Source: Terriglobia bacterium
GTDB lineage: Bacteria > Acidobacteriota > Terriglobia > 20CM-2-55-15
Reading direction: 5' to 3'
Assembly (NCBI GenBank): GCA_963664115.2
Contig: CAXWPJ010000012.1
Location: 320,001-384,000 of the forward strand
Length of the DNA stretch: 64,000 nucleotides
Position numbers and translations under genes: made by a program
Notes under the pieces: generated by a model
What the model was told of the DNA's origin: nothing
Database searches by the model: none
The model's input: the letters and a program-made list of their open reading frames with translations, nothing else
Shown: positions 7,264-25,020 of the stretch, piece after piece
Position numbering within the stretch: position 1 is the stretch's first letter
Layout: each line of letters opens with the position of its first letter

Positions 7264-7617
7264 GGGGGCGCACCGGTTTCGACGGATGCGAAGATGCAGG
7301 AGATGCATACCGAGGTTCCACGATCCTCGTAAAACGCGTGGAAAACAATCAACTGCTGACAATCAGTTAGCAATGGCTGCCTAATACGCAGCCACGTCCT
7401 TGGTTAATTCGCCTGTAGGTTGATTAAAGGGCGTCACTTTTTGCAGGATAGCCTGTTGCGGCTGGCCCGGCGGCGGCGGGTGAAACTCAATGGGCTGGTG
7501 TTCCGGCCGGGTTGCAGGTGCCTTCGGGCCGGGACACGAGACAAATAGGAACCTGACAAGTATGTAGATTCTTCTGTTGAACGTTTTCGGACGCGGGTTC
7601 GATTCCCGCCGCCTCCA
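7264..7617 (+). ncRNA. ssrA: tmRNA
   Basis: 5' GGGGGCG...GGTTTCGAC; tag ORF 7355-7384 ADNQLAMAA*; 3' T-arm GCGGGTTCGATTCCCGC and acceptor CGCCTCCA; TATAAT at 7245-7250. Confidence 0.96.
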
Positions 7618-7655
7618 TCAGTAAGTTGTTTATAATCAATTAGTTGATTCCAGAG

Positions 7656-7680
7656 GCTGACCAGAAATTGGTCAGCTTTT
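7656..7680 (+). terminator. Hairpin/terminator downstream of ssrA
   Basis: GCTGACCA-gaaat-TGGTCAGC followed by TTTT. Confidence 0.6.
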
Positions 7681-7697
7681 GGCATGTTTGGGCATGG

Positions 7698-7724
7698 TTT
7701 GGTCAACATTTTGGTCAACATTTT
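7698..7724. repeat. Tandem 12-bp direct repeat, integrase arm-site-like
   Basis: TTTGGTCAACAT x2 plus TTT, 80 bp after the tmRNA 3' end. Confidence 0.6.
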
Positions 7725-7823
7725 CACCCCTTCCACCGCCACCCATTCGCCTCCTACCGACTGCCCGGTTCGGTGACGGAAACGCCCGGGCTCTCGGACG
7801 CCCTGCCCCGTCCTTGGGGTGAT

Positions 7824-8369: not shown

Positions 8370-8393
8370 AAATCACTTCTCGGACGTTGAGAA
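8370..8393 (+). repeat. 40-bp site, copy a (right half only)
   Basis: AAATCAC-TTCTCG-GACGT-TGAGAA. Confidence 0.8.
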
Positions 8394-8494
8394 TTGGCCA
8401 ACATTCACGAGTAGACGCTTTCCTCGCCAATAACCCTCCCATGTAGATAGACTTACCAGAATTTCGCTGTTCTACTGAGCGACACACTCTGAAC

Positions 8495-8623
8495 ATGGAA
8501 TCTGGCACCAAACTCGGCCACTACGAGATCTCAACGCTCTTAGGTACGGACCAGGCCGACGCTCCCGCGAACCTCATCGCCGTACAGAACTGGCTCGAGG
8601 AGCTGATGCGGCTCGTGCCTTGA
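8495..8623 (+). pseudogene. Internally deleted Ser/Thr kinase gene (first 17 codons fused to the C-terminal tail)
   Basis: MESGTKLGHYEISTLLG (near-identical to the 15431 kinase start) + ...LIAVQNWLEELMRLVP*. Confidence 0.8.
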
Positions 8624-8832
8624 GGCTATAGAGGTTCGTCAAGGTACAGAGACTTTTAAAGATTGCGTTGACGGGCTTGTTCTGAATCTTACGCCTACTT
8701 TCCCGCACTACATCGCCTCCAGCGCCATGTCAGTTGACTGCTGCGATAGGGAGGTCAGGCAGGGCCCGTAGCAGGCTCCGAGCCCTGTCGAAACGACGGA
8801 TCGTCTTACCTGGCGAATTTCTATGGCAAGTC

Positions 8833-9726
8833 CTACCGGGAGCCGCTGGTGCCGGCCGCTGAGTAGGCGTTCTCGTTGAAGAAGTCCTCTTCGCTGGGAA
8901 CGCAAGGTTGATCCCACAGCTCGGCGCCGGGAGCCAACTTGGTCGTGAACACCTGGCCGACCCACGGTTCCGTATAAACCTCGGGATCGTAAATTGTGAG
9001 CTGGGATTCCAGGGTCCCGTAGGTCGGACGGCTCCACCGTTCGACGATCCGCATGTTGTTGGTGTGGGGCGCGCCGCCACCCGATGCCCGGGGGTCCTCG
9101 ACCTCAACTTCAAGGATCCACGAACGGTCGTCGAACCAGGCGGACTCGACGACGAACGTGTCACCCTCCCAGTGGCCGACGTTCCAGCCATTAAAGTTCA
9201 TCACCGGGGGCTCTTCCTCCGGAAGCTCGCGGCCGTCGGTATAAATCGTGCGCCAGGTGTGCTGGTACTCGAAGAACTGTAGAACCCGGTCGGGCAACAT
9301 CACGAACTCGAAGCCGCGGTTCTGGTTATAAAGCCGGGGCCAGCCCAACGGATCACAGGCCAGGAGTCCGAGGTCCTTTTCCGAGCCGCCATTTCCATAG
9401 ATCGGGAACCCGTCCGAGGTGAATTCTTCACCGCGAGTGTCCTCGAAGAGTTCCTCTCCGTACTCGGTGAAGGGAGGACGGGGCACCATGGAATCGCGTG
9501 CGCCGATATGACCCCAGACACCGGAAAGATCGCGCCGGTCGTAGTCGGTGATCTCGTCGATCCGGTTCTGGGCCCAGGCTTCGTCCCTGTCGGCGTTGTT
9601 CTGGCAGCGCGAGCAAGGGTACCAACCCTCCGGGAATTGAGCCGCTCGGCTCTCTTGGGCCAGCGCGAGCGACAGGCACAGGACAGCCGCCGTGACCACT
9701 GTCAGAATGACGATTCGATTTCGCAT
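8833..9726 (-). CDS. Secreted uncharacterised protein (DUF6152-partner type)
   Basis: Signal peptide; CSRCQNN; DLSGVW, CDPLGWPR, RTIYTDGR, GHWEGDTFVVES, DPEVYTEPW; paralog of 30695-31561. Confidence 0.85.
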   Translation of the reverse strand: MRNRIVILTVVTAAVLCLSLALAQESRAAQFPEGWYPCSRCQNNADRDEAWAQNRIDEITDYDRRDLSGVWGHIGARDSMVPRPPFTEYGEELFEDTRGEEFTSDGFPIYGNGGSEKDLGLLACDPLGWPRLYNQNRGFEFVMLPDRVLQFFEYQHTWRTIYTDGRELPEEEPPVMNFNGWNVGHWEGDTFVVESAWFDDRSWILEVEVEDPRASGGGAPHTNNMRIVERWSRPTYGTLESQLTIYDPEVYTEPWVGQVFTTKLAPGAELWDQPCVPSEEDFFNENAYSAAGTSGSR

Positions 9727-9913
9727 GGTAGTCCCCTCCCCTCATGCTCCAGAGATCTGGATAAACAAACGATACATAGCGATGGGTGCAATCTTTCGCC
9801 ATTGAACACTTGAGAGTCGTGCCTGTCAACAGCTAGCTGACGCGAAGTCGCCGCGAGGGAAACGCCCGTGAAGAAGAGTGCGCGCATCCAGTGGGAAGCC
9901 AGGGCAGCTGCCG

Positions 9914-10015
9914 GCGTGGACGCGGGATACTCTCTCCGTCGGCGACCGGGTAACCGTCGGCAATACCTATTTCACCGTCGAGACCATCAACGCTGCCGGC
10001 GAGACCGTCGATGGG
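9914..10015 (+). pseudogene. DUF6152-like fragments
   Basis: Reads WTRDTLSVGDRVTVGN-TYFTVETINAAGETVD; both segments resemble intact DUF6152 genes in this window. Confidence 0.4.
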
Positions 10016-10098
10016 GGTTTCGCATACTGTACTCGGTGACAACTCCTTCAAACGTCAAAGACCGAGTTCATATCCAGAGCAGCGTCGCTGTGATGACC

Positions 10099-11253
10099 TA
10101 GTGGTCCCCGTTAAACAGACTGTAACTTATCAAGATTTCGCCGGCCGCGCTGGACTTTAGCAAGGATGTCGGAAGCCGTTGCAGTCCAGATGAAGGGTTT
10201 CGGGTCTTCATTGTGACGAGCGAGGTAGTCCTCCACGGCCTGGATCAACTCGGGGACCGAGCGGAAAACGCCACGCCGGAGTCGTTGCTCGGACAGATCC
10301 CGGAAAAAGCGCTCGACCATGTTGAGCCACGACGCACTGGTTGGCGTGAAGTGCACATGAAAACGCTTGTTACGCTTGAGCCAGTTGACGACTTTCTGAT
10401 GTTTGTGAGTCGCATAGTTGTCGCAAATAATGTGGATCTCCTTATCTTTCGGCATGGCGCGTTTGATCTGATTCAGAAACCGGATCCATTCCTGATGGCG
10501 ATGCTTTGGCATGCAGGTTCCGATGACCGAACCGTCCAGGATGTTGAGCGCGGCGAAAAGCGTGGTTGTCCCGTTACGTTTGTAATCGTGGGTCATGGTG
10601 CCACACCGCCCCTTCTTCAGAGGTAACCCGGGTTGCGTGCGGTCCAGGGCCTGCATCTGGCTCTTCTCATCGCAGGACAAGACAATGGCGTTTTCCGGTG
10701 GGCTCAGATACAGACCGACCACATCCTCCAGCTTTTCGGCGAATCGTTTGTCGTTGGATAGTTTGAAGGTTCGTGACAGATGAGGCTTCAGTCCATGGAC
10801 CCGCCAGATTTTCCCGACCGTGGACTCGCTCACGCCAACGGCCTTCGCCATCGAGGCCCGACTCCAGTGCGTCGCGTTCGGGGGCTTCTCTTCCAGTGTC
10901 TTCTTGACGATCCGGGCTCGCTTCCGGCGACTGATCGTGGGAATCCGTCCGCTTCGCGGCGCATCCTTTTCGATCCCAGCCAAGCCCTGTTCCACAAAAC
11001 GATTGCGCCAGCGGCCCGCTTTCTGGCGCGTGATCTCCAAGCGGGCGGCGATCTCATAATTGTTCCGACCTTCAGCGGCCAGTAATACAATTCGGGATCG
11101 TTCCGCCAACCGGACCGATGTACTCCGGCTTCGACTCAGTCGCTCCAACTCCATCCGCTGCTTGTCATCCAATTCAATGGTCGGTGCTTTCCTCATTCTC
11201 TATTGGACGTTGGAAAGCTATTTTAGTTACATTACTTCGAGCGGGGTACACTA
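10099..11253 (-). mobile_element. IS630-family insertion sequence
   Basis: Ends TAGTGGTCCCCG / TAGTGTACCCCG within CTAG (TA duplication). Confidence 0.9.
10111..11196 (-). CDS. IS630 transposase
   Basis: HTH N-terminus, DEKSQ, HDYKRNGT, ICDNYATHK, HFTPTSASWLNMVE. Confidence 0.95.
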   Translation of the reverse strand: MRKAPTIELDDKQRMELERLSRSRSTSVRLAERSRIVLLAAEGRNNYEIAARLEITRQKAGRWRNRFVEQGLAGIEKDAPRSGRIPTISRRKRARIVKKTLEEKPPNATHWSRASMAKAVGVSESTVGKIWRVHGLKPHLSRTFKLSNDKRFAEKLEDVVGLYLSPPENAIVLSCDEKSQMQALDRTQPGLPLKKGRCGTMTHDYKRNGTTTLFAALNILDGSVIGTCMPKHRHQEWIRFLNQIKRAMPKDKEIHIICDNYATHKHQKVVNWLKRNKRFHVHFTPTSASWLNMVERFFRDLSEQRLRRGVFRSVPELIQAVEDYLARHNEDPKPFIWTATASDILAKVQRGRRNLDKLQSV

Positions 11254-11263
11254 GAACTGGTTG

Positions 11264-11292
11264 CCAGAAGTCGACTTCTGGGACGTTGAATT
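11264..11292 (+). repeat. 40-bp site, degenerate copy b
   Basis: CCAGAA-GTCGAC-TTCTGG-GACGT-TGAATT; inner arms remain complementary. Confidence 0.5.
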
Positions 11293-11466
11293 TGGATCGG
11301 TAAACGAAACGGCGTTTATCGAGGTTTAACTCTCGGAGGGCTGCGAGGCGGATAAGCGATACAAGCAGGGTCTGACGACTATGTCAGCGCGGACAGTGTC
11401 GCCGTATGGGTGTTGTGTCAAACCGCGCGCGGCCGCAGGCCGCCGCGCGAGTGTGCCGTCGTGATG

Positions 11467-12108
11467 TCAGTCCCCGGGTGGAAAGAAGATGCCAAAAGTA
11501 TCTGGGCCTCCGGACCGCAGGTCGATCATTAATTCGGTTCGCTCGACACCTGGAACCGTCTCCAATAGAGCAGCGAACTCTCCCGCCTGGATTTCACTCG
11601 CTTCGTCGTGGAACACGATGATCGACCGTGCGCCAACGAGGGTCCCGCTTGGCAGTCCGTACCCGCTTTCGTGGTAGTCCAGGGATCCGGCCCAGACAGT
11701 GGGCGTGTAACCCTGTAATTCCAGTAGTTCCTTGACACGTTGGAGAAGGGAGCTGTCTGAACGATCACCCGTGAGTAGCTGTATCGACAATCGTGCATTG
11801 GCCTGATTTATGACACCTTCCCCCGCCCGGGTTCGTTGTTCTGACTGCGCCTGTGCTGTACCCGCTGTTTCGCCTGACCTCAGTTCTGCCCTATCTTCCG
11901 ATTGGTCTGAGTCGGAAACCACGAACGTCGATGGAAATCCTGAATAGAAGAAGGAAAAGGCTACCAGCGTCAAACCGGTCAAACCCACACCGAGCCTTGC
12001 GATCGTAGTGCCCGTACCCACCTCTACCCCCTTGACCTTCACTCGACCCACTAGTCCCACCAGAAATAACGCTATGCCAAACGTGAGAAGGGCCCATTCA
12101 ATGCTCAT
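11467..12108 (-). CDS. Hypothetical membrane protein (two TM helices, possible LytR_C-like C-terminus)
   Basis: 213-aa ORF with hydrophobic N-terminal segments. Confidence 0.65.
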   Translation of the reverse strand: MSIEWALLTFGIALFLVGLVGRVKVKGVEVGTGTTIARLGVGLTGLTLVAFSFFYSGFPSTFVVSDSDQSEDRAELRSGETAGTAQAQSEQRTRAGEGVINQANARLSIQLLTGDRSDSSLLQRVKELLELQGYTPTVWAGSLDYHESGYGLPSGTLVGARSIIVFHDEASEIQAGEFAALLETVPGVERTELMIDLRSGGPDTFGIFFPPGD

Positions 12109-12281
12109 ATCGATCTTGCCTCCCGAAGTCCTCGCTCGCCGGCAGCCAGACTACGGCAACGATGACAACGACGATTGATTGCAACCGCACGACCGGGTTC
12201 GGTGTCCTTCAGAATCCCCACTTCGCCCGAGCCGCCTTTTCGGATTCCCGCTCGCTCGGCGCCGGGGCTGGGTGCCACGGG

Positions 12282-12351
12282 TGTACGTCGTCAAAGTAAT
12301 TCGCCCAGAATTGCGGATCTGCCAAGAGACGGTTTTTACGTTATACCACTC
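12282..12351 (-). mobile_element. Isolated end of the IS3-like element (related to 16235-16304)
   Basis: TGTACGTCGTCA...AAGAGACGGTTTT...GTTATACCACTC matches the end at 16235. Confidence 0.75.
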
Positions 12352-12411
12352 GAGTTCGACATAGTCCTGAACTGGTTTGAAGAACTGAAGGAACGGGTGC
12401 CGGTGCTCTAA
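12349..12411 (+). pseudogene. Ser/Thr kinase-family C-terminal tail
   Basis: LEFDIVLNWFEELKERVPVL*. Confidence 0.75.
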
Positions 12412-12544
12412 ACGACCATGAAAATGATTCTCAAGTCCTGTATCTGGACTCCTCTGTCAAGTAGGCGCAGCTCTCCCGTCAGCTTTCTTCGGCAAAATGC
12501 ATTCAGCAGGACTGACTAGAAGTTACGAGGTGAGTAGCTAGTCG

Positions 12545-12680
12545 ACTGCACCCGTATCTTCGGCCTCAAAAGTGGAACTGTATTGTTCCAGGCCATGATG
12601 GAAATTTGCGCGCGGGGAGCCAACCGATAAAATAACGGCCTCTAAGGGCCAAAGGACTTGTCGGCGTTGCCCCGCGCCGG
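12545..12680 (-). ncRNA. Predicted bridge/seek RNA of IS1111-A (boundaries approximate)
   Basis: Two stem-closed loops, each with an inner hairpin; guide segments match the target (CAAGTCCT, GATAAA) and the donor junction (CCATCAT, TATCT). Confidence 0.75.
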
Positions 12681-12748
12681 TCTGACCGGTACGCCATCAT
12701 CTCGAACCTCATCGCAGCTCGCTGAAAAGATATTCCGACTGTTCCGGG

Positions 12749-13783
12749 TCAGGCCGCCTGATACCGGGCCTGATGGTCACAGTCACGGTTCCAAACCGCC
12801 CACACGCGACGCGCCAACTTGTTGGCCAGTGCAACGATTGCCTTGTTGTGTCCGCGGAACTCGTGTTTCTGGAGACCCCATTGCTGGAGAGGTGTCGGTG
12901 TGGCGCCCTCTCGATGGGCACTCCACAACAGGGAACGGCCCCCATGAACCAACAGCATCCGGAGGTAACGATCGCCTTGCTTACTGATCCGGCCCATGCG
13001 TCGCTGGTTGCCACTGGAATGTTCCCGGGGTGTGAGTCCCAGATAACTGGCAAAATGGCGGGACGTTCGGAATCGTTTGATGTTTCCAACAAACCCCACC
13101 ATTGCCGTTGCCGTTAACAGGCCGATGCCGGGAATCGACGTCAGACGCGCGACCTCAGGCATCTGCCGAGCCAGCGTCTTCAACTCTTGTTCCACCGATC
13201 GCATGCGAGATTCCAATTCACGGATCTCGCCACACACCTGGTGAAACATCTCCCGAACGACACTGGGGATGACGACATCTGCATCTTCGATCAGCTCCAT
13301 TACCCCCGGCACCAGATGATCCGCTCCGGTCGGGATCACGTAGCCAAACTCCCGTAACAACCCCCGCACCGTATTGATCCGTGCGGTTCGGGTTCGCATC
13401 CACGCCGAACGGATTCGATGCAATGAGGTCAGTTGCTGTTGGGCCAGGGTTTTGACCGGCACTGGATGAATATCGCTGTCACGATAGGCTTCCAACAATC
13501 CTTTCACATCCGTACGGTCGGTCTTGTTGCGCCTGACGTAGGGCGTCACATACTGCGGCGAGATCAGAACGACCGTGTGTCCCAGTTCCCGGATCTTCCG
13601 ACCCCAGTAATGGGCGGATCCGCAGGCTTCCATCACCACGGTCGCCAGCTCCTGGTTCGCAAAGAACCCCAGAAACTTTGCCCGACTTAAACGATAGGTT
13701 TTCTCTACATGCCCGGGGCGATCTGAAACACCAATTTGAAAAACATTCTTTGCCAGATCCACTGCTATCGTTCTATTCTTCAT
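12749..13783 (-). CDS. IS110 DEDD recombinase/transposase A
   Basis: IAVDLAK, VMEACG, KTDRTD, SIPGIG, PREHSSG; AGGAG RBS before ATG 13783. Confidence 0.95.
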   Translation of the reverse strand: MKNRTIAVDLAKNVFQIGVSDRPGHVEKTYRLSRAKFLGFFANQELATVVMEACGSAHYWGRKIRELGHTVVLISPQYVTPYVRRNKTDRTDVKGLLEAYRDSDIHPVPVKTLAQQQLTSLHRIRSAWMRTRTARINTVRGLLREFGYVIPTGADHLVPGVMELIEDADVVIPSVVREMFHQVCGEIRELESRMRSVEQELKTLARQMPEVARLTSIPGIGLLTATAMVGFVGNIKRFRTSRHFASYLGLTPREHSSGNQRRMGRISKQGDRYLRMLLVHGGRSLLWSAHREGATPTPLQQWGLQKHEFRGHNKAIVALANKLARRVWAVWNRDCDHQARYQAA

Positions 13784-14145
13784 CTCGGACTCCTTTTTGT
13801 TCACACGTACACGTGTTTCGCCCGCTTTATTGCGAGGCTCAAAATGACTTTGGCACTTCGATGCCGACTCAGTCATCAAAGAGGAGTCCATACCATCAAT
13901 AAATCATCTTCTCGGACGTTGAGAATTGTGCGGCAGGTTTTGCCCCTCACAGGGAAATTTCAGTCCTCTGTGGGCGGGCGCGGTGCCAAAGCCTACGCTG
14001 ATGCACGATGCCTTGCGGGACGAGGACTGCCAGTCTGCCCGACTGGCCGAACACCTCCTATCGTTCGTTTAAATCCCAGTTTCGCCTTTGCCTCTCGGGC
14101 GAATCGAGTAGAATTATCCGTATACCGAAAACCACGAGGGGAGTC

Positions 14146-15156
14146 ATGCGTCAGCCCAGCAAATACTACCGCGCAGCGACCTTAACGTGTTTGCTGCTGT
14201 GTCCCATCACCGCCACTGCTCACCATCACAGAATCAACTTCCTCGACACGACTATCGCCTTTTACGGTGAGATCACTCGCGTCGATTGGCAAAACCCACA
14301 TGTGTATTTCTACGTCGATGCCGAGGACAATAGCGGTCGCACCGTCACGTGGCAAATCGAGAGCGGATCAACACCCAGCTTGACGCGACGTGGATTCAGC
14401 CGGGACTCGCTTAAGGTCGGGGATATGGTCACCGTCCGCGGTAACCCGGACCGCAACCCGGAACGCAAGCGCCTTGTCGCGTCGACGTTCACCAACAGAG
14501 ACGGCACTAATTACGTACTGCAGGGCCGCGCGCCGAACCGCTCGGAGACTCCCCAGGCAATCACGACGAGCATCGCCGGAGTCTGGCAGTCTATTGGCGG
14601 TCCATACGATCGCACGAGGGCCGCAACCCACTTGCCGCTGACCGAGGCAGGCGAGGCAGCGGCTGCAAGATTCAACGTCAACAATGACCCGTTCGCGGAC
14701 TGCGTACCGCCGCCCGTGCCAGACAGCTTGAGCACACCGTATTTGCACGAGGTCATCATCGGTGACGGCACGATCACACTTCGTGAGGAATACTGGGAGA
14801 TCGATCGCACGGTCTATATGGATGGCCGCAGCCATCCGGAAGAGGGTCGACGGACGAATCAAGGACACTCGATCGGACGTTTTGACGGCGAAGTGCTCGT
14901 GGTCGATACCGTCTTATTCGATGACCACGCATTCGGGAATGGGAGTGGCATACCGAATGGTGCCCGAAAGCATATGGTCGAGCGTTATTCGCTGACTGAC
15001 AATGGCACGATGCTTACGATCGACTATGTATTGGAAGATCCCGAGTATCTGGCTGAGGCGGTCACCGACACCCGTCAGTGGCGTTACGCACCGGAACTCG
15101 AGCTGTTGCCGAACCAATGCGACCTGGAGAACGCACGCCGCTACGTGGAAGACTAG
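14146..15156 (+). CDS. Secreted DUF6152-like domain fused to a partner-type domain
   Basis: ATA-HHH after signal peptide, WQNPH, GDMVTVRG; C-half DPFADCVPP, RTVYMDGR, GHSIGRFDGEVLVVDT, DPEYL. Confidence 0.85.
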   Translation: MRQPSKYYRAATLTCLLLCPITATAHHHRINFLDTTIAFYGEITRVDWQNPHVYFYVDAEDNSGRTVTWQIESGSTPSLTRRGFSRDSLKVGDMVTVRGNPDRNPERKRLVASTFTNRDGTNYVLQGRAPNRSETPQAITTSIAGVWQSIGGPYDRTRAATHLPLTEAGEAAAARFNVNNDPFADCVPPPVPDSLSTPYLHEVIIGDGTITLREEYWEIDRTVYMDGRSHPEEGRRTNQGHSIGRFDGEVLVVDTVLFDDHAFGNGSGIPNGARKHMVERYSLTDNGTMLTIDYVLEDPEYLAEAVTDTRQWRYAPELELLPNQCDLENARRYVED

Positions 15157-15289
15157 ATCGCGGCAGTAGGAGTCTTCCCCGCGGCGGAACCGGCATATCG
15201 CGTTTTAACGGACGGCGGTATCGAGCCGATGTGGCCACTCAAGCTTTTCTACCGAGGCAAGTTTCTAACCTCAACAGCCCTGAAAATGA

Positions 15290-15329
15290 TTCTCAAGTCC
15301 TGAGAAATCATCTTCTCGGACCTTGAGAA
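15290..15329 (+). repeat. 40-bp site, intact copy d
   Basis: TTCTCA-AGTCC-TGAGAA-ATCATC-TTCTCG-GACCT-TGAGAA. Confidence 0.92.
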
Positions 15330-15359
15330 TTGGCCGTGATACTCGGGCTCACAACTTCC

Positions 15360-15389
15360 TTGCTTATAAACCCCACCGGTAGTTAGATT
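15360..15389 (+). promoter_or_regulatory. Putative promoter in the kinase leader (also 8424-8453 on + and 21918-21947 on -)
   Basis: TTGCTT-N18-TAGATT; TCGCCA-N18-TAGACT; TTGCTT-N18-TAGACT at the same offset after three copies of the site. Confidence 0.55.
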
Positions 15390-15430
15390 TATCCAACTTT
15401 TTCACGTTTCGTTTCGGCACACACTAATTT

Positions 15431-16234
15431 ATGGAATCCGGCACCAAACTCCTCCATTACGAGATCTCAACGCTCTTAGGTAAGGGCGGGATGGGAGAAG
15501 TGTGGCGTGCCAAAGACACCAAACTCGGACGTGAAGTCGCCATCAAGACGCTTCCCGAAGAGTTCGCCAGAGACGCAGATCGGTTGGCCCGCTTTGAACG
15601 TAAAGCGAAACTTCTTGCCTCTCTGAATCACCCCAACATCGCAGCCATTCACGGATTTGAAGAAGACAACGGGACGCACTTCCTTGTTTTGGAACTCGTC
15701 GAGGGGGACACCTTAGCCGACCGGGTGAAACGGGGTGCCGTTCCTGTTGAAGAATCACTCAAATTGGCTCTACAGATTGCCGAAGCGTTAGAGGCTGCGC
15801 ACGAGAAGGGTGTGATCCACAGGGATCTGAAACCGGCGAACATCAAGGTCACGCCCGATGACAAGGTTAAGGTGTTGGACTTCGGGTTGGCAAAAGCGTT
15901 TGAGGGAGAGGCTGTAGACGCAAACCTCTCGCAGTCCCCCACGCTGAGCATGGCAGCCACGCAGCAAGGAATCATTCTCGGGACAGCAGCCTATATGAGT
16001 CCCGAGCAGGCGAGTGGATCACCTACGGATAAGCGCGCAGATATTTGGTCCTTTGGCGTTGTGCTGTTTGAAATGCTTACCGGACGGCAGATGTTCACGG
16101 GCAAGACTGTGTCCCACATTCTCGCTGATGTCCTGCGTGCTGAGCCTGAGTGGAGCAGTTTACCGGCCAACCTACATCCGAGGCTTCGGATGCTGCTGGA
16201 ACGCTGCTTGGAGAAAGAAGCAAAAGACCGCTGC
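15431..16234 (+). pseudogene. Hanks-type Ser/Thr protein kinase, truncated by the IS3-like element
   Basis: GKGGMGEV, VAIK, HRDLKPAN, DFG, GTAAYMSPEQ; the frame runs into the IS end at 16235. Confidence 0.9.
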
Positions 16235-16293
16235 TGTACGTCGTCAGAATAATTCGGACAAAAAGACCATTTAGCTAAGAGACGGTTTTGAAG

Positions 16294-17277
16294 TTATACC
16301 ACTCCAATCCTAAGGTTCTCGATTTTGCGTCGAGCCAGCGTTTTTCTTTTGATCTGGTCACGACGTGCAAGGATCTGCTGATCCCTCCCGAAGAACACGT
16401 CAGCCGGTGTCACGTTGTTCAGAGATTCGTGATACCGATGGTGGTTGTAGTGTTCGACCCATTGCGCGATCGCCTGCTCAAGTTCCCACGGATAATAGTA
16501 GTGTTCCAACTTGACCACGTTCTTCATCGAACGGTGATAGCGTTCGATCTTGCCCTGTGTCATCGGGTGATAGGGCGCACCCCGGGTGTGTTCCATACCA
16601 CGACGTTGTAAATAGTCTTTGAGTTCGTGCGATACGTAGCAGGGGCCGTTGTCGCTCAACAATCGCGGTCGGTGCCGGACTTGTACTTGTCCGACATCTG
16701 TCGCCTGTAGTGCAACGTCCAGCGTGTCCTGAACGTCAGATGCGGCCATGGTTTGAAAGAGCTTCCAGGCGATGATGTAGCGAGAGTAATCGTCCAGCAC
16801 GGTCGACAGGTAGTACCAACCCCAACCGACGACCCTGAAGTAAGTGAAATCAGTTTGCCAGAGTTCGTTCACACGCCGGGTTGGCTGCTGGAAGTGATCG
16901 CTGGCCGTCATCACGATGTATGCGGGACTGGTGATCAGGTCGCATCTCTTCAGAATCCGATACACGCTGGATTCGGAGATGAAGTAGTCCTGGGTGTCGG
17001 TGATCTGCCAGGCCAGTTCCCGCGGTGAGGCTTCCGGGTGGTTCAACGCGGTTTCGACCACCTGTTCCCGCACCGGTCCCGGAATCCGGTTCCAGCAGAA
17101 GCCGGGGCCGGAATGCCGATCTAACAAGCCGGCTGCGCCACGCTCTTTGTATCGTCGATACCAACCGTAGAACGTGCTGCGGGGGACGCCCAGCTCCCGG
17201 AGGGTCGCTGTCACCGACAACTCCGAGTCTTCCACCACTCGGATCGTCTCCAGCTTCTCAGATCCCGATTGCCTCAT
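16294..17277 (-). CDS. Transposase OrfB (rve integrase core)
   Basis: WQTDFT, LDDYSR, LSDNGPCY, PYHPMTQGKIER. Confidence 0.92.
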   Translation of the reverse strand: MRQSGSEKLETIRVVEDSELSVTATLRELGVPRSTFYGWYRRYKERGAAGLLDRHSGPGFCWNRIPGPVREQVVETALNHPEASPRELAWQITDTQDYFISESSVYRILKRCDLITSPAYIVMTASDHFQQPTRRVNELWQTDFTYFRVVGWGWYYLSTVLDDYSRYIIAWKLFQTMAASDVQDTLDVALQATDVGQVQVRHRPRLLSDNGPCYVSHELKDYLQRRGMEHTRGAPYHPMTQGKIERYHRSMKNVVKLEHYYYPWELEQAIAQWVEHYNHHRYHESLNNVTPADVFFGRDQQILARRDQIKRKTLARRKIENLRIGVV

Positions 17278-17615
17278 ATATCGATGCTCTCGGAGTCCGT
17301 TACGTTCAACGTTTTTTTCAGAAAACGATTCTTTAGCAGTATTTCGGCTACGACCTGCTTCAGCTGTTCGTTCTCCTGGCGTAATTCAGTGACTTCGCTC
17401 GATGTCGCTTCCCGCTTCGTGTCCCCAGCCAGCCGTTTCTTCCCCGCCTCCAGGAAGTCCTTGCTCCACCGGTAATACAAATTCGATGGAATCCCTTCGC
17501 GTCGGCACAGCGCTGCGATGCTCTCTTCGCCTCGCAGTCCTTCCAACACAATCTCGCACTTTCTCTTCCGACGAATCTCCCGTACCCGATTCTCTGCCGA
17601 CACTTTCTCACTCAT
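17274..17615 (-). CDS. Transposase OrfA (HTH), possibly with a short deletion
   Basis: IVLEGLRGEESIAALCRREGI...YYRWSKDFLEAGKKRL. Confidence 0.85.
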   Translation of the reverse strand: MSEKVSAENRVREIRRKRKCEIVLEGLRGEESIAALCRREGIPSNLYYRWSKDFLEAGKKRLAGDTKREATSSEVTELRQENEQLKQVVAEILLKNRFLKKTLNVTDSESIDI

Positions 17616-17775
17616 TCGATCCTCCTTCAGATCGTTCTGATTAGAAAAGTGTCTCTTAGTTTTTTAGGGTATTTCGTACGAAATGCTCTGACGGGCTACA
17701 ACTACGTGTTGTCAGAGCCGTTGAAGTGCCCGCGATGTATGGCGGTGGTTATTGAGAAGTCCTTTGGCCCATCGC

Positions 17776-18350
17776 TTACTTAAAATTGGCATCCGACAAC
17801 TTTTTATGAAGCTTGTCTTCTAGATCTTCAAAATTCCCATCTTTATCTTGATCTGGCACTTCCTTCTCGAACCATTGTTCTTCAACGTCAAGGTCAAAGT
17901 CTGGAAATCGGCCCCCAGTCTGGTTTCGGCTTGTCATCAGGGTCAGTGTCCCACCGTCCGAGCAATCGCACCGCCCAATACATTTTCGCTGCTGTGTACC
18001 AATCAACTCCATCACACCGCATAGCGTGATAGAACATCTTGTCCACATTCTTCCTTTCAATGTTTCTTGGTTCACGATCTGGCAGCGGGTAGTAGCAATC
18101 GTGAATGACGGCAGCACGACGGAAGTCACCAACGTAAGGCGAGCCATAACGCCTTCCCCAAAGAAACTCTGGGATATTTGCACCGCTGATTTCATCGCCC
18201 TCTTCTGCAAGCCGTGTATGGGGTCTTGTCTGGGTCCGTGTAAGTAAAGTCACAGTGGAGTCTCATATGTTTGTCTTTTCCGTTGTCGTCCCTTAGCCAC
18301 CGAGTGATCGGTACTTCGTCTCCTTCTTGGAACTCTCCATGATTACCCAT
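17776..18350 (-). pseudogene. DUF1353-like protein, frameshifted
   Basis: MRLHCDFTYTDP in one frame; GANIPEFLW-G-SPYVG-FRRAAVIHD, VDKMFYHAM in another; shift near 18210. Confidence 0.65.
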
Positions 18351-18419
18351 GTCCTTATCTCCAAAGTGAGGATGGCGTGGTGGTAGGCACGAAGATCGAT
18401 GCTTAAAGAGAACATTCGC

Positions 18420-19223
18420 ATGCCCGTGCATCGTTTGATTATCGGCGGCACAATCGCTTTGATCTTCGGTGCTGGCATAGTCCGGGCTCAGGATTCGCAC
18501 CCAGACTTCACGGGAATCTGGAGTGGTAGCTTCACGACGCAGGACAACGACTTCTGGGGAGCAGAGGACTTCACGGCGTGCTTCGCGGGCTGCACGCCTG
18601 CGTCTCGCGAGCATCTGTTGGCCCTGTTCGACGACCCAGCTAATGACGATCAATCTGTTAGGGAACTTTGGGATCAAACTGTCGCGTTTATGCGTCAAGA
18701 GCTGGCTGCAAAAGCCACACCGGAAGGATTGGCTCTGCAAAACGCCAACACGACGGCCAACGATCCGACAATTCTATGCAAGCCGTATGGGATCGTGCGC
18801 CAAGCAGCCAGTCCGTTACCGATGGCGGTTCGTCGCGACGGCGAAAATCTTGTCCTTGATTATGAGGAATGGAATCTAAGCCGCACAGTTTACATGGATG
18901 ACAGGAGCGAACCAGCCGACTTAACGTCTACACCGCTTGGTCATTCGGTTGGTTCCTACGAAGGTAACGTTCTCGTAATCAGTTCCTCTGGCATAGAAGG
19001 AGATATCTATTACTCATTTCAAAGCGGTGGTGGCTATAGTGATCAGGTATCAGTGGACGAGCGATATACAATTCACGACAATCCGAGACGCTTAGTGCTT
19101 GAGATGACTGTGACGGATCCCGTGACGCTCACCGAACCACACCTCACCGAGAAAATATGGCTGTGGACCCCCGATGTCGAAATGATCGAGGACAGCTGCG
19201 GTGACATTCCCGGACAACCCTGA
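18420..19223 (+). CDS. Secreted uncharacterised protein (DUF6152-partner type)
   Basis: Signal peptide; PDFTGIW, DPTILCKPYG, RTVYMD, GHSVGSYEGNVLV, DPVTLTEP. Confidence 0.85.
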   Translation: MPVHRLIIGGTIALIFGAGIVRAQDSHPDFTGIWSGSFTTQDNDFWGAEDFTACFAGCTPASREHLLALFDDPANDDQSVRELWDQTVAFMRQELAAKATPEGLALQNANTTANDPTILCKPYGIVRQAASPLPMAVRRDGENLVLDYEEWNLSRTVYMDDRSEPADLTSTPLGHSVGSYEGNVLVISSSGIEGDIYYSFQSGGGYSDQVSVDERYTIHDNPRRLVLEMTVTDPVTLTEPHLTEKIWLWTPDVEMIEDSCGDIPGQP

Positions 19224-19248
19224 GCAATGTATGTTGAGGAGATGGCTA

Positions 19249-19671
19249 ATGAAATCGATAGTCCTCAGGTCGTTTGTTAGTGCCGTACTACTGTTCTCTT
19301 CGCAGGCGAGTGCGCATCATGCCGCGGCCGTGCTGTATCACCTCGACCAGCAGGTCACCATCGAAGGTGTCGTCACGGAGTTTAGGCTTGGCAATCCCCA
19401 TGCGCGTATCTATATGACTGTCAGGAATGCGAACGGTGAGGAAAACCAATGGATGGCTGAAGGCGGTTCACGCACTGTTCTGACCAGGAACGGTTGGACT
19501 GGCGACGAGCTGCATGTGGGTGACGCCGTCACGATTATCGGTAACCCGTCGCGCAACGGTTCGAGAGTCATCCACTGGGAGAAAGTGGTATTGCCCGACG
19601 GCACCGAACGTTGGGGCGAGGATGTCCCGGAGGATTCCGTTCTCGAAGAGCTGCGCCAGCGACGCCGTTGA
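19249..19671 (+). CDS. DUF6152-like secreted protein
   Basis: ASA-HH, GVVTEF, NPH, W-AEGG, GW, GDAVTIIG. Confidence 0.85.
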   Translation: MKSIVLRSFVSAVLLFSSQASAHHAAAVLYHLDQQVTIEGVVTEFRLGNPHARIYMTVRNANGEENQWMAEGGSRTVLTRNGWTGDELHVGDAVTIIGNPSRNGSRVIHWEKVVLPDGTERWGEDVPEDSVLEELRQRRR

Positions 19672-19824
19672 GCACGAGCCGCGTTTGGCGTTGACGCGAG
19701 GAGCAACAGCACGCCGCGAACGCTTTTGCGAGGGAGCATGGTCCCCGCCCCTTCTAGCATGCCTGTTTGACCTTGGATCGCCGGGCCCAGTCTAAAAAAC
19801 ACCTGAATAAGGTGGGCGCTGAAA

Positions 19825-19864
19825 TTCTCAACGTCCGAGAAGATGATTTCTCAGGACTTGAGAA
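19825..19864 (-). repeat. 40-bp site, intact copy e (inverted)
   Basis: Reverse complement = TTCTCA-AGTCC-TGAGAA-ATCATC-TTCTCG-GACGT-TGAGAA. Confidence 0.92.
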
Positions 19865-19907
19865 CCTATCGATCAACCGACTGAAAGAAGTAGGGCTTCT
19901 TCGCCGC

Positions 19908-21755
19908 CTACCAACCCGCCGCCTGACCGTCCTTGCGGTGATCGGATCCGGCGCGGTAGATGCCGTTGACGGGATGATCCTCGTCGATGCTCTCGGGTCC
20001 GAACGTCGGTAAAGGAAGGCTCGGATCTCGGGTAAACAAAATGCCCTGGTAGCCTCCGACCGCACTACCGGTGACCGCGCACACGCGGTGGCCCTTGGCC
20101 TCTAGGGTGGCGCCGACCAGGTCAAACAGGTGACTTTCTAAAGACAGCACATCCGAGCCCTGGTTGTGGGTGAAGCGCGCCGCGTCCGTGGTCATCTGTA
20201 TGTTCATACCGTGATCGATGAGATTCACAATGTGTTGTGCATGTGTCTCGGGCTGCACGCTGCCGCCCATGTTGCCAAACGTCATCATAGGGTTGCCGTT
20301 CTGCGCGACGAACCCGGCGATGATCGTGTGAAACGGTCGCTTGCGGGGAGCAACAACATTCGGGCTCTCGGGGTCCAGCGAAAAGGCAGCACCGCGATTC
20401 TGAAGAACGAAGCCGTAGGGGGACACGGTCGCGCCGCTGCCGTACACCGAGAACACGCTGTGGATGAGGGACACCATGTTGCCCCACCGATCGGCTGTGG
20501 TGAGGTAGATCGTGCCGCCGTCCAGTCCGCCGCTGACCGGGGGGGCCGAGGCGCTGTCCATGCTGATTTTCCCACAGAGCGTGGCAGCATACGACTTCGA
20601 GAGCAACTCACCGACGGGAACGCGCGAAAACTCCGGATCGGCGTTATACGCGTAGAGGTCCGAATAGGCTAGTTTCTTGGCTTCGATAAGGAAGTGCCAG
20701 TAGTCCGGGTTCGTAGGTCCGAGTTGAGCCAGGTCCACGCCGTGCACCGGCGCGCAAACCTCGAGGATGTTGAGCATCTCTAGGGCGGCAAAGCCCTGGC
20801 CGGGGGGAGGCAGCTCGAAAACGTCGTAGCCGTGATAATTGGTGGAAACCGGCTCCACCCATTCGGACTCGAACTCCGCCAGGTCGGCCCTAGTCATCAC
20901 GCCACCGTTGGCCTGCACCTTGGCGACGATGGCATCGGCGATCTCGCCCTCGTAGAAGGCCTCGCGGCCCCGTTCCTGCATCAAGCGCAAGGCCGCCGCC
21001 AATTCCGGATTGCGCACCAGGCTGTACAGCGCCGGTGCTCTTCCGTCGTTCAGGAACGTTCGGTTGGAGTCGGGATCGCCACGGAGCTTTCCCTGGACGG
21101 CGACGATGTCGCGGTGGCGGCGCTCCGACTGCCCCCAGCCCTCCTCGGCAAGCTGGGCGGCTCGTGCAAACGTCTCACGGAACGTTAGGGTGCCGAAGCG
21201 TTGTAACAGGGCATCGTAGCCGGAGATGGCGCCCGGGACAGTGGTGGCATTCACTCCGCTTCCGGGCATCCGTTCCAGGCCGAGCTCGTCGCGAAAGAAC
21301 TCCGGTGTCCATCCCGCCGGTGCCCAGCCGGCGGAATTCAATGCATACAGTCTGTTGTCCTGGGCCACCCAAACGAGTGCGAAAAGATCGCCGCCAATGC
21401 CCGTGTCGTTCTGCGAAGTCACGTCCAGGACGGCGCCGGCCGCGACCGCCGCATCAATGGCGTTCCCGCCTCGCTGCAGGATTTCCAGCCCGGCCTGGAC
21501 CGCCAGTGGATCGCTGGTCGCCACGATCCCGTGACGGGCCAGCACCTCCGACCGGCCCTGCGCCAGCCAGCCCTGTGCTCTTGAGCCCGGTACCGCGGCG
21601 ATGGTGGCGGCAGGATTTGGCGCGTCTTCGGTAGGAGTCCCGAACGCGCTAGGCGACTGCACCGCCAGAGACAAGGGCGCCGCCAGCAAGACGGCGGCCA
21701 ACGCCGCGCACAAGAGATCCGCCCACCGACGAACGCTTCTGGTCTCTCTCTCCAT
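19908..21755 (-). CDS. ggt: Gamma-glutamyltransferase family protein, secreted
   Basis: GGNAIDAAVA, TGIGGD-F, TVPG, nucleophile region GTIYLTTADRWGN, PRKRPFHT, SDHRKDG. Confidence 0.92.
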   Translation of the reverse strand: MERETRSVRRWADLLCAALAAVLLAAPLSLAVQSPSAFGTPTEDAPNPAATIAAVPGSRAQGWLAQGRSEVLARHGIVATSDPLAVQAGLEILQRGGNAIDAAVAAGAVLDVTSQNDTGIGGDLFALVWVAQDNRLYALNSAGWAPAGWTPEFFRDELGLERMPGSGVNATTVPGAISGYDALLQRFGTLTFRETFARAAQLAEEGWGQSERRHRDIVAVQGKLRGDPDSNRTFLNDGRAPALYSLVRNPELAAALRLMQERGREAFYEGEIADAIVAKVQANGGVMTRADLAEFESEWVEPVSTNYHGYDVFELPPPGQGFAALEMLNILEVCAPVHGVDLAQLGPTNPDYWHFLIEAKKLAYSDLYAYNADPEFSRVPVGELLSKSYAATLCGKISMDSASAPPVSGGLDGGTIYLTTADRWGNMVSLIHSVFSVYGSGATVSPYGFVLQNRGAAFSLDPESPNVVAPRKRPFHTIIAGFVAQNGNPMMTFGNMGGSVQPETHAQHIVNLIDHGMNIQMTTDAARFTHNQGSDVLSLESHLFDLVGATLEAKGHRVCAVTGSAVGGYQGILFTRDPSLPLPTFGPESIDEDHPVNGIYRAGSDHRKDGQAAGW

Positions 21756-21859
21756 GTCGAGCTCCTATTGGTTGAGGGTATTGTCAGGTTAAATCGGTCA
21801 CGGCGCCATGCCGGGATGAAAAATCGCCGATCTCGCGACCTTAGTGCTCTGGCTCGTTG

Positions 21860-21876
21860 TTGGTGCCGGAGTCCAT
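21860..21876 (-). pseudogene. Kinase start remnant after the shared leader
   Basis: ATGGACTCCGGCACCAA (MDSGT) at the same distance from site f as the kinase ATGs from sites a and d. Confidence 0.65.
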
Positions 21877-22169
21877 CGTTTTACTATGTCGCGCAAAGGA
21901 ACCGCGTAATTCTGGCAAGTCTATCTATGTGGAAGGGTTATAAGCAAGAAAAGGCGCAACTCCCGCATCTTACCCAATTCTCAACGTCCGACAAGATGAT
22001 CTATGAAAGGGGATGTCAAGAGAAACAGCTCCCCGATGGCCGGCCAGGCGGACACTTTTGTCGTGACAGCCAGCCCCTCTACCGTTATGTGAAGCCCTGG
22101 TTCCGGCAATCCGCAGCGAAATCGTACATCTTTAAGACGGTCGATTCAGAAACTGAACAGCAGATGGGA

Positions 22170-22305
22170 CGGCATGTGCCGACCATGGATCTATCTGAGC
22201 CTCGAAGGCTATCGCTGTTTCAGGTCGTGCGAGGGGGGATAGAGATTTAAAAGTGTCCTCTGGACGTATCCAGGGACCACATCTTGTGCAGATCCTCACC
22301 CTCGA
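22170..22305 (-). ncRNA. Predicted bridge/seek RNA of IS1111-B (boundaries approximate)
   Basis: Loops with inner hairpins; guides GATTTA/CATCTTGT match the target, GATCTAT/ATCGCTGT match the donor junction. Confidence 0.75.
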
Positions 22306-22370
22306 TCCTCAGTTGTTCCGACTCCGTCTAACGACTCAGTACGGCTCTACCGGTCACGGATCGAAACGGC

Positions 22371-23435
22371 TTATGTTGTCATCCAGCTCAGTTTCTTTGG
22401 ATCGAACGATTCTCCTTTCTTCCAAAGCGTCAGCACCAGTGCGGCGATCTTACGGGCCAGAGTGACCCGCGCCATTTCCTCCCGCATCCCACGCATCTGG
22501 AGACTCTCCAGATAAATCCGATACGGCTCGCTTTGTTTTCCCGATGCCGCGGCTGAGAAGAACACCGACTTCAATCGCCGGTTGCAGTTCGCATTCAATC
22601 CGCGTGTGGCCACCGGTTTCCTCCGTCGCACCACACGTCCACTCTGCATCTCATACTCCGCGCTCATGTGGGTCACCACACCCAGGCCACTGTAGCTCCA
22701 GAACTGCGGTGTCGTGCGGAATCGGTACGGCGTGTCCACGATGGCGACGATCTGTGCCGCCCGAACCGGTCCCAGTTGTGGAATGGTCTCGAGCAGTTTC
22801 ACCGCCTCATGGTGCCGGCCCTCCACTCGCACCGCTTTTCTGGATTGTTTCCGCAGCAACTGGACCTGGTCCAGTTCCGCATACAACCATCGGGCGCGCT
22901 GCCTCATCCCCGGCTCGGTCAGCTTCTCCAACCACTGTTCGCGCTGACTCGGCCGATAGACTCCGTCCTTCGGTGTCGGGATCCCCCGTCCCCGGTATAT
23001 CGCTTTGATCCGCGACATCACCCGTTGCGTGTCCAACTGGAACGTGTCATAGGCCTGCACCAGTTGCTTCAATTCTCGCGTCGCTTCATGGCCGTGATAC
23101 ACCGAGCGCAACAGTCCCACCCGCAACAGCTCGGCCAGCTTCCGCGCATCCGGCTTATCCCCCTTCGACCCTTCTTGCATCCACTTGTTCTGTCGCGGAT
23201 CGCACACCACCACCTCGCTCACCCACGGCCGGATCACTTCCGATAACCAGCCCGCTTGCGTGGTCTCCTCCAACCCCACGTGCATCGGCCCACTCAATCC
23301 CTCCAGCAGCCGTGTGATACTCCCCGCCTCGGTTTCCACGATCGTTTCAAACACCAGTTTGCCGCTCCCGTCTCTCACCGCAACCACCGTCGTTGCCTGG
23401 TGCACATCCATACCCATATACTTGTCTTGTTTCAT
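22371..23435 (-). CDS. IS110 DEDD recombinase/transposase B
   Basis: GMDVH, LEET, KGDKPDA, TIPQLG, FWSYSGL...HMSA; AGGAG RBS. Confidence 0.93.
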   Translation of the reverse strand: MKQDKYMGMDVHQATTVVAVRDGSGKLVFETIVETEAGSITRLLEGLSGPMHVGLEETTQAGWLSEVIRPWVSEVVVCDPRQNKWMQEGSKGDKPDARKLAELLRVGLLRSVYHGHEATRELKQLVQAYDTFQLDTQRVMSRIKAIYRGRGIPTPKDGVYRPSQREQWLEKLTEPGMRQRARWLYAELDQVQLLRKQSRKAVRVEGRHHEAVKLLETIPQLGPVRAAQIVAIVDTPYRFRTTPQFWSYSGLGVVTHMSAEYEMQSGRVVRRRKPVATRGLNANCNRRLKSVFFSAAASGKQSEPYRIYLESLQMRGMREEMARVTLARKIAALVLTLWKKGESFDPKKLSWMTT

Positions 23436-23574
23436 CTCGAACGCTCCTTTTCTGGGATCAACGCTGTATACGTTGATCAGGTTGTTGAGTGAGTCTTCTC
23501 TCAACAACCCCCAGTCTAGGGGCGTCCTTTCATACTGCGATTTATCGGGATCTGAGAATCAATTTCACTGCTAT

Positions 23575-23750: not shown

Positions 23751-23828
23751 AATCCGCAAGCAATACTTTGCGGGGCATGTTTTAATGTCGGTCGAGGTTT
23801 CCAGAGAATGTTGATTCGGAGGTAGGAC

Positions 23829-24776
23829 ATGTATCAAACGCTGCTGATGGTGTCGCTGTTGTCCTTGGGTCTGCAGGAGTCGGACGAGGCGCAGCAGTAT
23901 CGACAGGACTATGCTCAGTACGAAGACATAGTGGCCATGACCGACACGGTCGAGCGTGCCACGGCGTTTATGGACTTCGTGGATCAGGGCTTCGACGATC
24001 GGCTCATCGGGGTGGTTGCTGTCGGCATCCAGACTGCCCTGGAGGAACTGTCCGGAGATGTTCTATATCCGCTGGGGGACCGCTGGGATGCGCAGACCGG
24101 TGCCATGACCGGCGCCGTCAGATCTCTCCAGAGTGCCGCAGGTGCCGGGGACCACGCGAACATCGTCAAGTACGGTGAAATCGTCTACGCTGCGAATCCG
24201 ATCACTGAAATCGCAGAAATCCTGGCAGGCAGCAACAGCGCCCTGGGAAACAATGACAAGTATCTGGAGTATGCCAACGTCGTCATCGAGGACAAGGGCG
24301 TCGCCGAAAGCTTTGATTTTGCCTATAACATCTTTCAGCAGGAACGGTCGACAGAGAATTGGGACGCGGCGGCCGGATGGGCAAACCGGCTGAAGGCCCT
24401 GAGTGCCGCGCCGCCCGGAGTGTCCGTCGCCGACTGGAGGAATATGGGGATCGAGTTCCAGAGGTCGATTGCCCGGGCGGAATTCGAAGGAGGGCGATAC
24501 CCGAACGCCATTACTCAATACCGGATGCTAGCCGATATGGACCGTTCGCTGCGCGCGATCTCGAATATCTATATGGGCCGCAGCCACATTGCGATCGGCG
24601 GACCCGACCAGGTGAATCAGGCGCTGGCCCGGTTCGCCGACGCTGCCGTGGTCAATGATCCGAATGTTTCAGACGCGGCGATGACGATGGTCGAGGAGAT
24701 CTACACAACGAACACAGGGACCCTTGAGAGAATTGACGAGAACGTCCTGGATGCCGCACGGGAGCGCATGCGATAG
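23829..24776 (+). CDS. Secreted all-helical (TPR-like) hypothetical protein
   Basis: GGAGG RBS, signal-like N-terminus, helical repeat character. Confidence 0.75.
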   Translation: MYQTLLMVSLLSLGLQESDEAQQYRQDYAQYEDIVAMTDTVERATAFMDFVDQGFDDRLIGVVAVGIQTALEELSGDVLYPLGDRWDAQTGAMTGAVRSLQSAAGAGDHANIVKYGEIVYAANPITEIAEILAGSNSALGNNDKYLEYANVVIEDKGVAESFDFAYNIFQQERSTENWDAAAGWANRLKALSAAPPGVSVADWRNMGIEFQRSIARAEFEGGRYPNAITQYRMLADMDRSLRAISNIYMGRSHIAIGGPDQVNQALARFADAAVVNDPNVSDAAMTMVEEIYTTNTGTLERIDENVLDAARERMR

Positions 24777-24802
24777 GCAACCGGGAACTCTCACGGGAAT
24801 CG

Positions 24803-24831
24803 AAAAAGGGCGGCCCCTTGGCCGCACTTTG
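24803..24831 (+). terminator. Possible terminator
   Basis: GCGGCC-cctt-GGCCGC hairpin flanked by A and T runs. Confidence 0.5.
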
Positions 24832-24854
24832 TTGTGCCTGCGCTCTGTCGGCAC

Positions 24855-25020
24855 GGTACTGTCATCTTGAGCCCATAACCGCCAGACTTGCGGCGTGAAA
24901 TCCGCCCGCCCCCTCGATCACGGATACCGCTATCCACGGGAAATCATCGGTCACGCAGTCTGGCTCTACCACAGAGGTACTGTCAAGTTAAGCTGAATCC
25001 GTCCGTTTCGGCGACGGAAT
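24855..25020 (+). mobile_element. IS6-family remnant(s)
   Basis: GGTACTGTCA at 24855 and 24976; between them GYRYPREIIGHAVWLYHR, a typical IS6 transposase N-terminus. Confidence 0.75.

Follow-up and report, generated by a model that had tools for sequence, protein, structure and literature searches.

A 40-bp symmetric site recurs through a 64,000-nucleotide stretch (the ‘window’) of a Terriglobia bacterium genome (the source genome, G000); we think that accessory gene units are exchanged at it in a cassette system of dif-module type, and that a dedicated Xer-like enzyme, the tyrosine recombinase P0001, probably acts on it in double-stranded form. The evidence comes from comparison of sequences in G000, in four congeners (G001–G004) and around P0001 homologues of other Acidobacteriota; it makes P0001 the likely recombinase of the site, with catalysis predicted. 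A first-pass annotation of the window had read them as the recombination points of a cassette array, with the recombinase encoded at some other place, and the sites do behave in this way, with breakpoints of homology at the sites and whole units recurring between them; a pattern from which we infer recombination. The window itself appears to be an orphan array, its two rows of sites converging within the island that follows the transfer-messenger RNA (tmRNA) gene.

Our site finder, an iterated matrix run over G000, returns 177 full copies of the site and none in the shuffled DNA used as control; three are exact duplicates and a few others lie in duplicated blocks, perhaps assembly overlaps, and the genome-wide copy number is about 175. 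A half-site scan adds 50 orphan left arms and 65 orphan right arms. The length of the site is fixed at 40 bp and the conserved core spans 34 bp (14-6-14), with positions 1–3 and 38–40 variable; of the layout initially described, two 17-bp arms around a 6-bp spacer, the arrangement of arms and spacer holds but the arms are conserved over 14 bp only. This oriented arm/spacer/arm geometry is that of a dif-module site, with a spacer that could be 6 or 8 bp, and it comes in two main spacer classes: class A (ATCATC; 129 of 173 sites in G000) and class B (ACGAC[A/C]; 20 of 173).

Set against 20 shuffled windows, whose top scores run from 9.7 to 19.3 bits, both intact copies reported for the window (sites d and f, Table 1) stand out at 59 and 60 bits. 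The two copies described as split by insertion sequences (ISs) are also real: once the IS110 element between their parts is removed, site c rejoins to 40 bp and site e to 43 bp, the latter because its element has the 3-bp ATC core at either end. The half copy ending at 8393 is present as a right arm only. Another, proposed as a degenerate copy at 11264–11292, is partly borne out, its full-length score (11253–11292, 16.4 bits) lying within the shuffle range but its right arm, which has a twin at C12:544093, passing the half-site scan; a further copy suggested at 8636–8674 scores −16 to −44 bits and is discarded. Directly repeated sites do bracket single genes: the DUF6152 fusion between c and d, and the gamma-glutamyltranspeptidase gene (ggt) between f and e.

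For either strand of the site a hairpin is predicted in which two bases bulge out (z about −4.1 to −4.6), and co-variation of the inner arms had been put forward as an argument for cassette sites. The argument fails, as no compensatory change is found: positions 15 and 26 can pair in 53 sites out of 129, the expectation being 53.8, and among 278 sites from four genomes 0 of 16 arm pairs beat the shuffles, invariant pairs being uninformative in either direction. The R″ and R′ boxes that flank the site are the defining feature of attC, and 0 of 177 sites have the two of them within 40 bp, in keeping with the original statement that these are not attC. Single-stranded use of the hairpin, as for attC (by an integron integrase) or for repetitive extragenic palindromes (REPs; by an HUH transposase), strikes us as very improbable; it would draw on the predicted fold, on the integron integrase encoded in this genome and on insertions into the site by IS110 elements and by a group II intron-like remnant, but has against it the missing compensation and R boxes, the fixed length and conserved loop, and the absence of any site from the integrase locus. 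That integrase (C9:714590; 439 bits, cut-off 265) was rejected as cognate enzyme on the last of these grounds, no site being found within its 18-kb locus (C9:706000–724000, L186); several small same-strand open reading frames (ORFs) adjoin it, and the locus is probably a classical integron, separate from the 40-bp site system.

The copies are far from evenly spread. In G000, 143 sites fall into 21 clusters that together span 8% of its length; of 168 inter-site gaps, 128 are of 10 kb or less (31% at random), and 5 of 177 sites lie inside long ORFs (77% expected), nearly all being intergenic. The site is thus present in the window island that it had been said to partition, but is not specific to it. 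Nor does it behave as a REP/REPIN scattered independently of synteny breaks, being intergenic yet clustered and found at breakpoints; no REP-associated tyrosine transposase was seen among 41 recurrent island families scanned, a genome-wide search for it not having been made. Neighbouring sites within 10 kb of each other (n = 128) follow a strict orientation grammar: 84 pairs are AA direct, 36 AB inverted and none AB direct, the rest being AA inverted (six), BB direct (one) and BB inverted (one, the pair around the P0001 gene). Twelve of the 36 AB inverted pairs are less than 200 bp apart, with their right arms facing inward. Modules with one or other arm inward alternate, and fused modules occur, as in dif modules, with direct, fused-type units dominant (84/128).

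All four congeners carry the pattern, in 17 (G001), 98 (G002), 48 (G003) and 3 copies (G004, with another spacer), as do four of five genomes in one sister genus. The site was found in 0 of 25 genomes from nine other genera of the family and in one of 400 other genomes sampled across the phylum (a single copy with three mismatches); exact matches in viral contigs numbered zero.

Exchange at the sites is best seen where entire units recur. A 1289-bp unit (99.6% identity) occupies two loci in G000 with different neighbours on both sides, as does a 389-bp unit, and a 715-bp unit is common to G000 and G001; in the window, the ggt unit (19828–21818) has a counterpart of 92% identity in G002, a unit likewise bounded by sites but placed at another locus, far from the G002 tmRNA gene, the homology stopping within the site. 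More generally, 62 site pairs share at least 250 bp on one flank, with homology on the other flank extending for no more than 58 bp in 54 of them and no more than 3 bp in 42; across genomes, where the comparison covered the island regions retrieved from the relatives, 31 of 31 pairs are one-sided. Synteny in relatives thus breaks at the site, as anticipated, and exchange with breakpoints at sites is what dif modules lead one to expect. Within the site itself, positions 1–3 and 38–40 track the adjacent flank, and positions 14/15, 26/27 and 32/33 track neither.

The gene for P0001, one of 27 tyrosine-recombinase matches in G000, is intact (C5:52189–53154) and sits between two inverted B sites, beyond which A sites on each side point away. 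Its product keeps the full catalytic set of a simple tyrosine recombinase (R164, K191, H261, R264, H287 and Y296), with the motifs present in 117–120 of 120 homologues, and scores 127 bits as XerC (cut-off 335), 123 as XerD (cut-off 330) and 61 as the integron integrase IntI (cut-off 265), so is not the enzyme expected of an integron. Homologues are numerous (7720 of 8000 scored clusters pass an E-value of 1e-60) and belong nearly all to the Acidobacteriota; phage records held none at 1e-30. With motif fitting seeded by the G000 site, 35 of 61 upstream regions of homologues exceed 10 bits (shuffles 10–18), as do 26 of 57 downstream regions (shuffles 9–19). Inner arm and spacer are constant within homologue subfamilies, and the outer arm varies (anchors were picked by eye). 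Scanning the 28 loci of at least 6 kb among 71 non-redundant ones, with one spacer-masked model, we find 75 related sites against one in shuffled sequence, again with two spacer classes; ten loci have at least two sites, the gene lies within a B+/B− module in eight, and AB direct pairs number zero. This B+/B− recombinase module is the block common to the multi-site loci, with unrelated single genes between the sites outside it; at two loci (L216 and L338) the arms are nearly identical to those of G000. Many homologues (L197–L289) have their ribosome-binding site inside a conserved upstream hairpin, which suggests translational damping of the recombinase. A tyrosine recombinase present in six identical copies (C1:92926–93846 and five other places; L005–L010) was also considered as cognate enzyme and rejected: it is part of an IS91-type element with a Y2 transposase, three of six copies lie near an arm, and 21 related copies in G001 have no site nearby. 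Several of the six are inserted about 25–30 bp from a site.

Could the host XerC/XerD pair be acting instead, on divergent chromosomal dif-module sites, with P0001 mere cargo? We consider this improbable. XerC and XerD are the sole tyrosine recombinases common to all five genomes of the genus, the inner right arm of the site matches the XerC-side arm of host dif at 8 of 11 bases (by direct reading), and the module grammar is akin to that of the Acinetobacter C/D modules, as far as the consulted portion of PMC13141974 describes them. The left arm, however, matches the XerD-side arm at 5–6 of 11 bases, so that a XerD-type arm, and with it the paired XerC and XerD arms of a true dif module, is absent; the site is not found in the nine other genera; and the same grammar recurs at P0001 homologues with different arm sequences. 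A canonical dif exists separately in G000 (C2:108118) and in 5 of 5 relatives tested, which also leads us to reject the site as the host dif itself, as first stated. A second, degenerate dif with identical spacer lies 3.4 kb away (C2:111513, L185), the two perhaps being what is left of an element that integrated at dif.

Several observations weigh against a dedicated recombinase acting at these sites. Recombination was not observed: the read lay-out of four runs gave only unitigs, breaking at repeats, with joints that involve paralogous repeats and unit depth differences that could not be ranked. The flank test is anchored at the sites, and some of the pairs that it scores as one-sided consist of kinase paralogues or ISs, for which reason the whole recurring units are the stronger evidence. 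Left-sharing pairs differ at position 15 in 10 of 14 cases and right-sharing pairs at position 26 in 11 of 22, about as at random. A single central crossover does not predict this pattern of arm polymorphism, for which branch migration, gene conversion or RecA may be responsible. No P0001 was found in G002 (98 sites), G003 (48 sites) or G004, and in G001 its gene is interrupted. Under the one model used, 18 of the 28 homologue loci show fewer than two sites; arm likeness is not strictly tied to protein identity, homologues at 61–63% having arms more like those of G000 than homologues at 66–69%; and a homologue on a Granulicella plasmid has no clear array, with only weak matches of 12–13 bits.

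The sites also keep close company with a family of Ser/Thr kinase-PD40 genes. A 3′ remnant of the kinase, its last codons, precedes 131 of 278 A sites in four genomes (69 of 129 in G000), and a common place for B sites, in inverted orientation, is 76 bp upstream of the kinase start; to judge from this, the ancestral module appears to have been B-kinase-A with left arms inward, and many units in this genus appear to derive from one such module, its promoter and last codons kept around captured cargo. The ggt cargo, for instance, is enclosed by kinase remnants of unequal length in G000 and G002. An alternative, to which we give little credence, is that the site is a protein-binding element (an operator or promoter part) amplified with the kinase family, exchange being due to RecA-type recombination or gene conversion that runs through the site together with the kinase remnants; the kinase association itself, the 100–250 bp of shared sequence that the remnants and B-site spacing provide, and internal polymorphisms linked to neither flank would all fit. 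It does not lead one to expect spacer classes or strict AB inversion, nor 42 of 62 breakpoints within 3 bp of the site edge, and arrays elsewhere in the Terriglobia share the grammar; in these, the sites are separated by single, unrelated genes, and the ORFs show no evident kinase scaffold.

Certain mobile elements favour the site, which serves as a landing pad common to three IS types: full copies lie near a site arm in 7 of 7 and 6 of 8 cases for the two IS110 types of the window and in all 6 for an IS30-like element. The counts for four other types are 0/53, 0/76, 1/26 and 1/18, and the rate for random places is 0.5% (IS family names are supported in part by Pfam). An ORF-less element, which from its motifs we take to be group II intron-like, is found three times at one right-arm position (C12:17046, 20183 and 564501; L184).

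Returning to P0001 as the dedicated enzyme, tyrosine-recombinase biochemistry and the precedent of dif modules suggest that recombination would occur only between matching spacers. From this it would follow that A × A recombination excises or inserts a unit, that paired A × A and B × B events swap a B-A module, and that A × B recombination is blocked. The recombinase module would itself be exchangeable, allowing arrays such as that of the window to persist as orphans, and the kinase remnant would serve as scaffold around captured cargo. On balance we lean, by a little, towards a broader reading in which this is a third cassette platform beside integrons and Xer dif modules: Acidobacteriota-wide, self-bounded recombinase modules seeding mirror-symmetric arrays, with two non-interchangeable site addresses and natural cassette exchange; in this genus it would have expanded to about 175 sites in some 20 arrays, with the kinase as a recyclable capture scaffold.

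The features of the window array are collected in Table 1. Homology to the four congeners ends shortly after the tmRNA gene, the single match of an Rfam scan; downstream of it synteny ends and content differs in each of the four. The adjoining 7618–7730 is AT-rich with a short tandem repeat and resembles an integrase attachment remnant, with no integrase there; G003 has an integrase immediately after tmRNA, and neither an attR-like repeat nor a second tmRNA end was found in G000. Promoter and terminator scans of the window gave chance-level counts (5 against 6.6, and 13 against 14.7), with no bearing on the claim that sites precede promoter leaders. Further along, 23752–24912 is 98.5% identical to a block within a G002 array (L131), its ends in the window coinciding with no recognisable site. 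Between 14008 and 45275 there are five DUF6152 genes and four DUF6644 genes; near sites in four genomes, DUF6152 ranks among the largest families of cargo. The IS load is very high (as at 40371–41951 and genome-wide), one DDE element having 76 full copies and an IS256-type element 53, and near-identical multi-kb blocks occur in duplicate (C6/C11; C2:487–5321 and C2:161973–166806), some at contig ends, through either assembly overlap or recent duplication.

Table 1. Features of the site array and its surroundings, in window coordinates
Feature	Position	Strand	Basis or remark
tmRNA gene, left boundary of variable island (context)	7264..7617	+	Homology to four congeners ends within ~110 bp of 3′ end
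Right arm of half site, left arm lost	8377..8393	+	Perfect arm, 27 bits, half-site scan
Collapsed kinase scaffold: Ser/Thr kinase-PD40 gene start and end fused in frame, 42 codons	8495..8623	+	Sequence against intact family members
Cargo block with 297-aa ORF (8833–9726), no Pfam match	8665..9916	-	96% identical to G002 block at another locus (L145)
IS630-family transposase	10111..11196	-	Not site-targeted, 1/26 copies near arm
Degenerate site, weak, right arm recognisable, spacer GTCGAC	11253..11292	+	16.4 bits, within shuffle range
Kinase 3′-end remnant before site c, approximate limits	12359..12411	+	Sequence
Site c, left part, class A, IS110-split	12428..12440	+	Sequence
IS110-family element within site c	12441..13898	-	Pfam; 6/8 full copies at site arm
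Site c, right part	13899..13925	+	Sequence
DUF6152 fusion ORF, only cargo of unit c-d	14008..15156	+	Pfam
Site d, intact, class A (spacer ATCATC)	15290..15329	+	59 bits
Ser/Thr kinase scaffold gene, 5′ part, IS-truncated	15431..16252	+	Pfam; many paralogous matches start at site, 15293
rve-type (IS3/IS481-like) transposase ORFs	16294..17615	-	Pfam; not site-targeted, 1/18
Cargo pair: 274-aa ORF and DUF6152 gene	18399..19671	+	Pfam
Site f, intact, class A	19825..19864	-	60 bits
Gamma-glutamyltranspeptidase gene, only cargo of unit e-f	19908..21755	-	Pfam; 92% G002 match
Site e, spacer and right arm	21978..22000	-	Sequence
Second IS110-family element, at ATC of site e	22001..23538	-	Pfam; 7/7 full copies at site arm
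Site e, left arm and repeated ATC core	23539..23558	-	Sequence

Were this system to work as we propose, a large Acidobacteriota family annotated only as ‘XerD’ or ‘integrase’ would drive an unrecognised exchange of accessory genes, by a route that integron and dif searches would miss, in a phylum that is abundant and mostly uncultured; dif-module grammar would be operating without host Xer; and there would be a testable enzyme-site pair, its naturally orthogonal spacer classes possibly useful as cassette-exchange tools. No description of this site or recombinase system was found in the literature, subscription journals lying outside our coverage; the available text of 10.1101/542381 and of PMC8138268 does not mention Acidobacteria, and their supplements may list the P0001 family.

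Among known systems, the simple tyrosine recombinases of the Xer group, as outlined in the text seen of PMC8138268, share with P0001 a core-binding and a catalytic domain with the full catalytic set. By Pfam, P0001 likewise has no arm-binding domain, and its nearest solved structure is an archaeal XerC-like protein (4a8e); unlike the references of that group, it falls below the XerC/XerD cut-offs and has homologues almost all from Acidobacteriota. With integrons and clusters of attC sites lacking integron integrases (systems of IntI, attI and attC), the arrays share units of mostly a single gene, a tyrosine recombinase of their own, enzyme-free orphan arrays and sites parasitised by IS110 and intron-like elements. 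They differ in having no R boxes, a fixed site length, no co-variation and no IntI (61 bits against 265), as well as two site classes in inverted relation and units that often keep a long shared leader.

The closest likeness is to the dif modules of Acinetobacter (pdif/cdif, XerC/XerD). In the portions consulted of PMC13141974 and PMC12907356, these have arm/6-bp/arm sites with intrinsic orientation and spacer classes; the former reports that C and D modules alternate, that fused modules occur and that rearrangement takes place between identical or near-identical spacers, and the latter describes chromosomal islands of dif modules. Alternating modules with one or other arm inward, fused modules bounded by direct sites and chromosomal multi-module arrays are all found here too, as are target-specific ISs, reported in the part seen of PMC10132070. 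What sets the present system apart is arms of 14 bp, the left one without match to the XerD arm of the host dif; the gene of a non-Xer recombinase inside its own module; some 175 chromosomal sites with only two main spacer classes; and arrays that extend mirror-wise outward from the recombinase. We regard it as a variant of the dif-module kind that is real, large and, it appears, undescribed, and that probably has a recombinase of its own.

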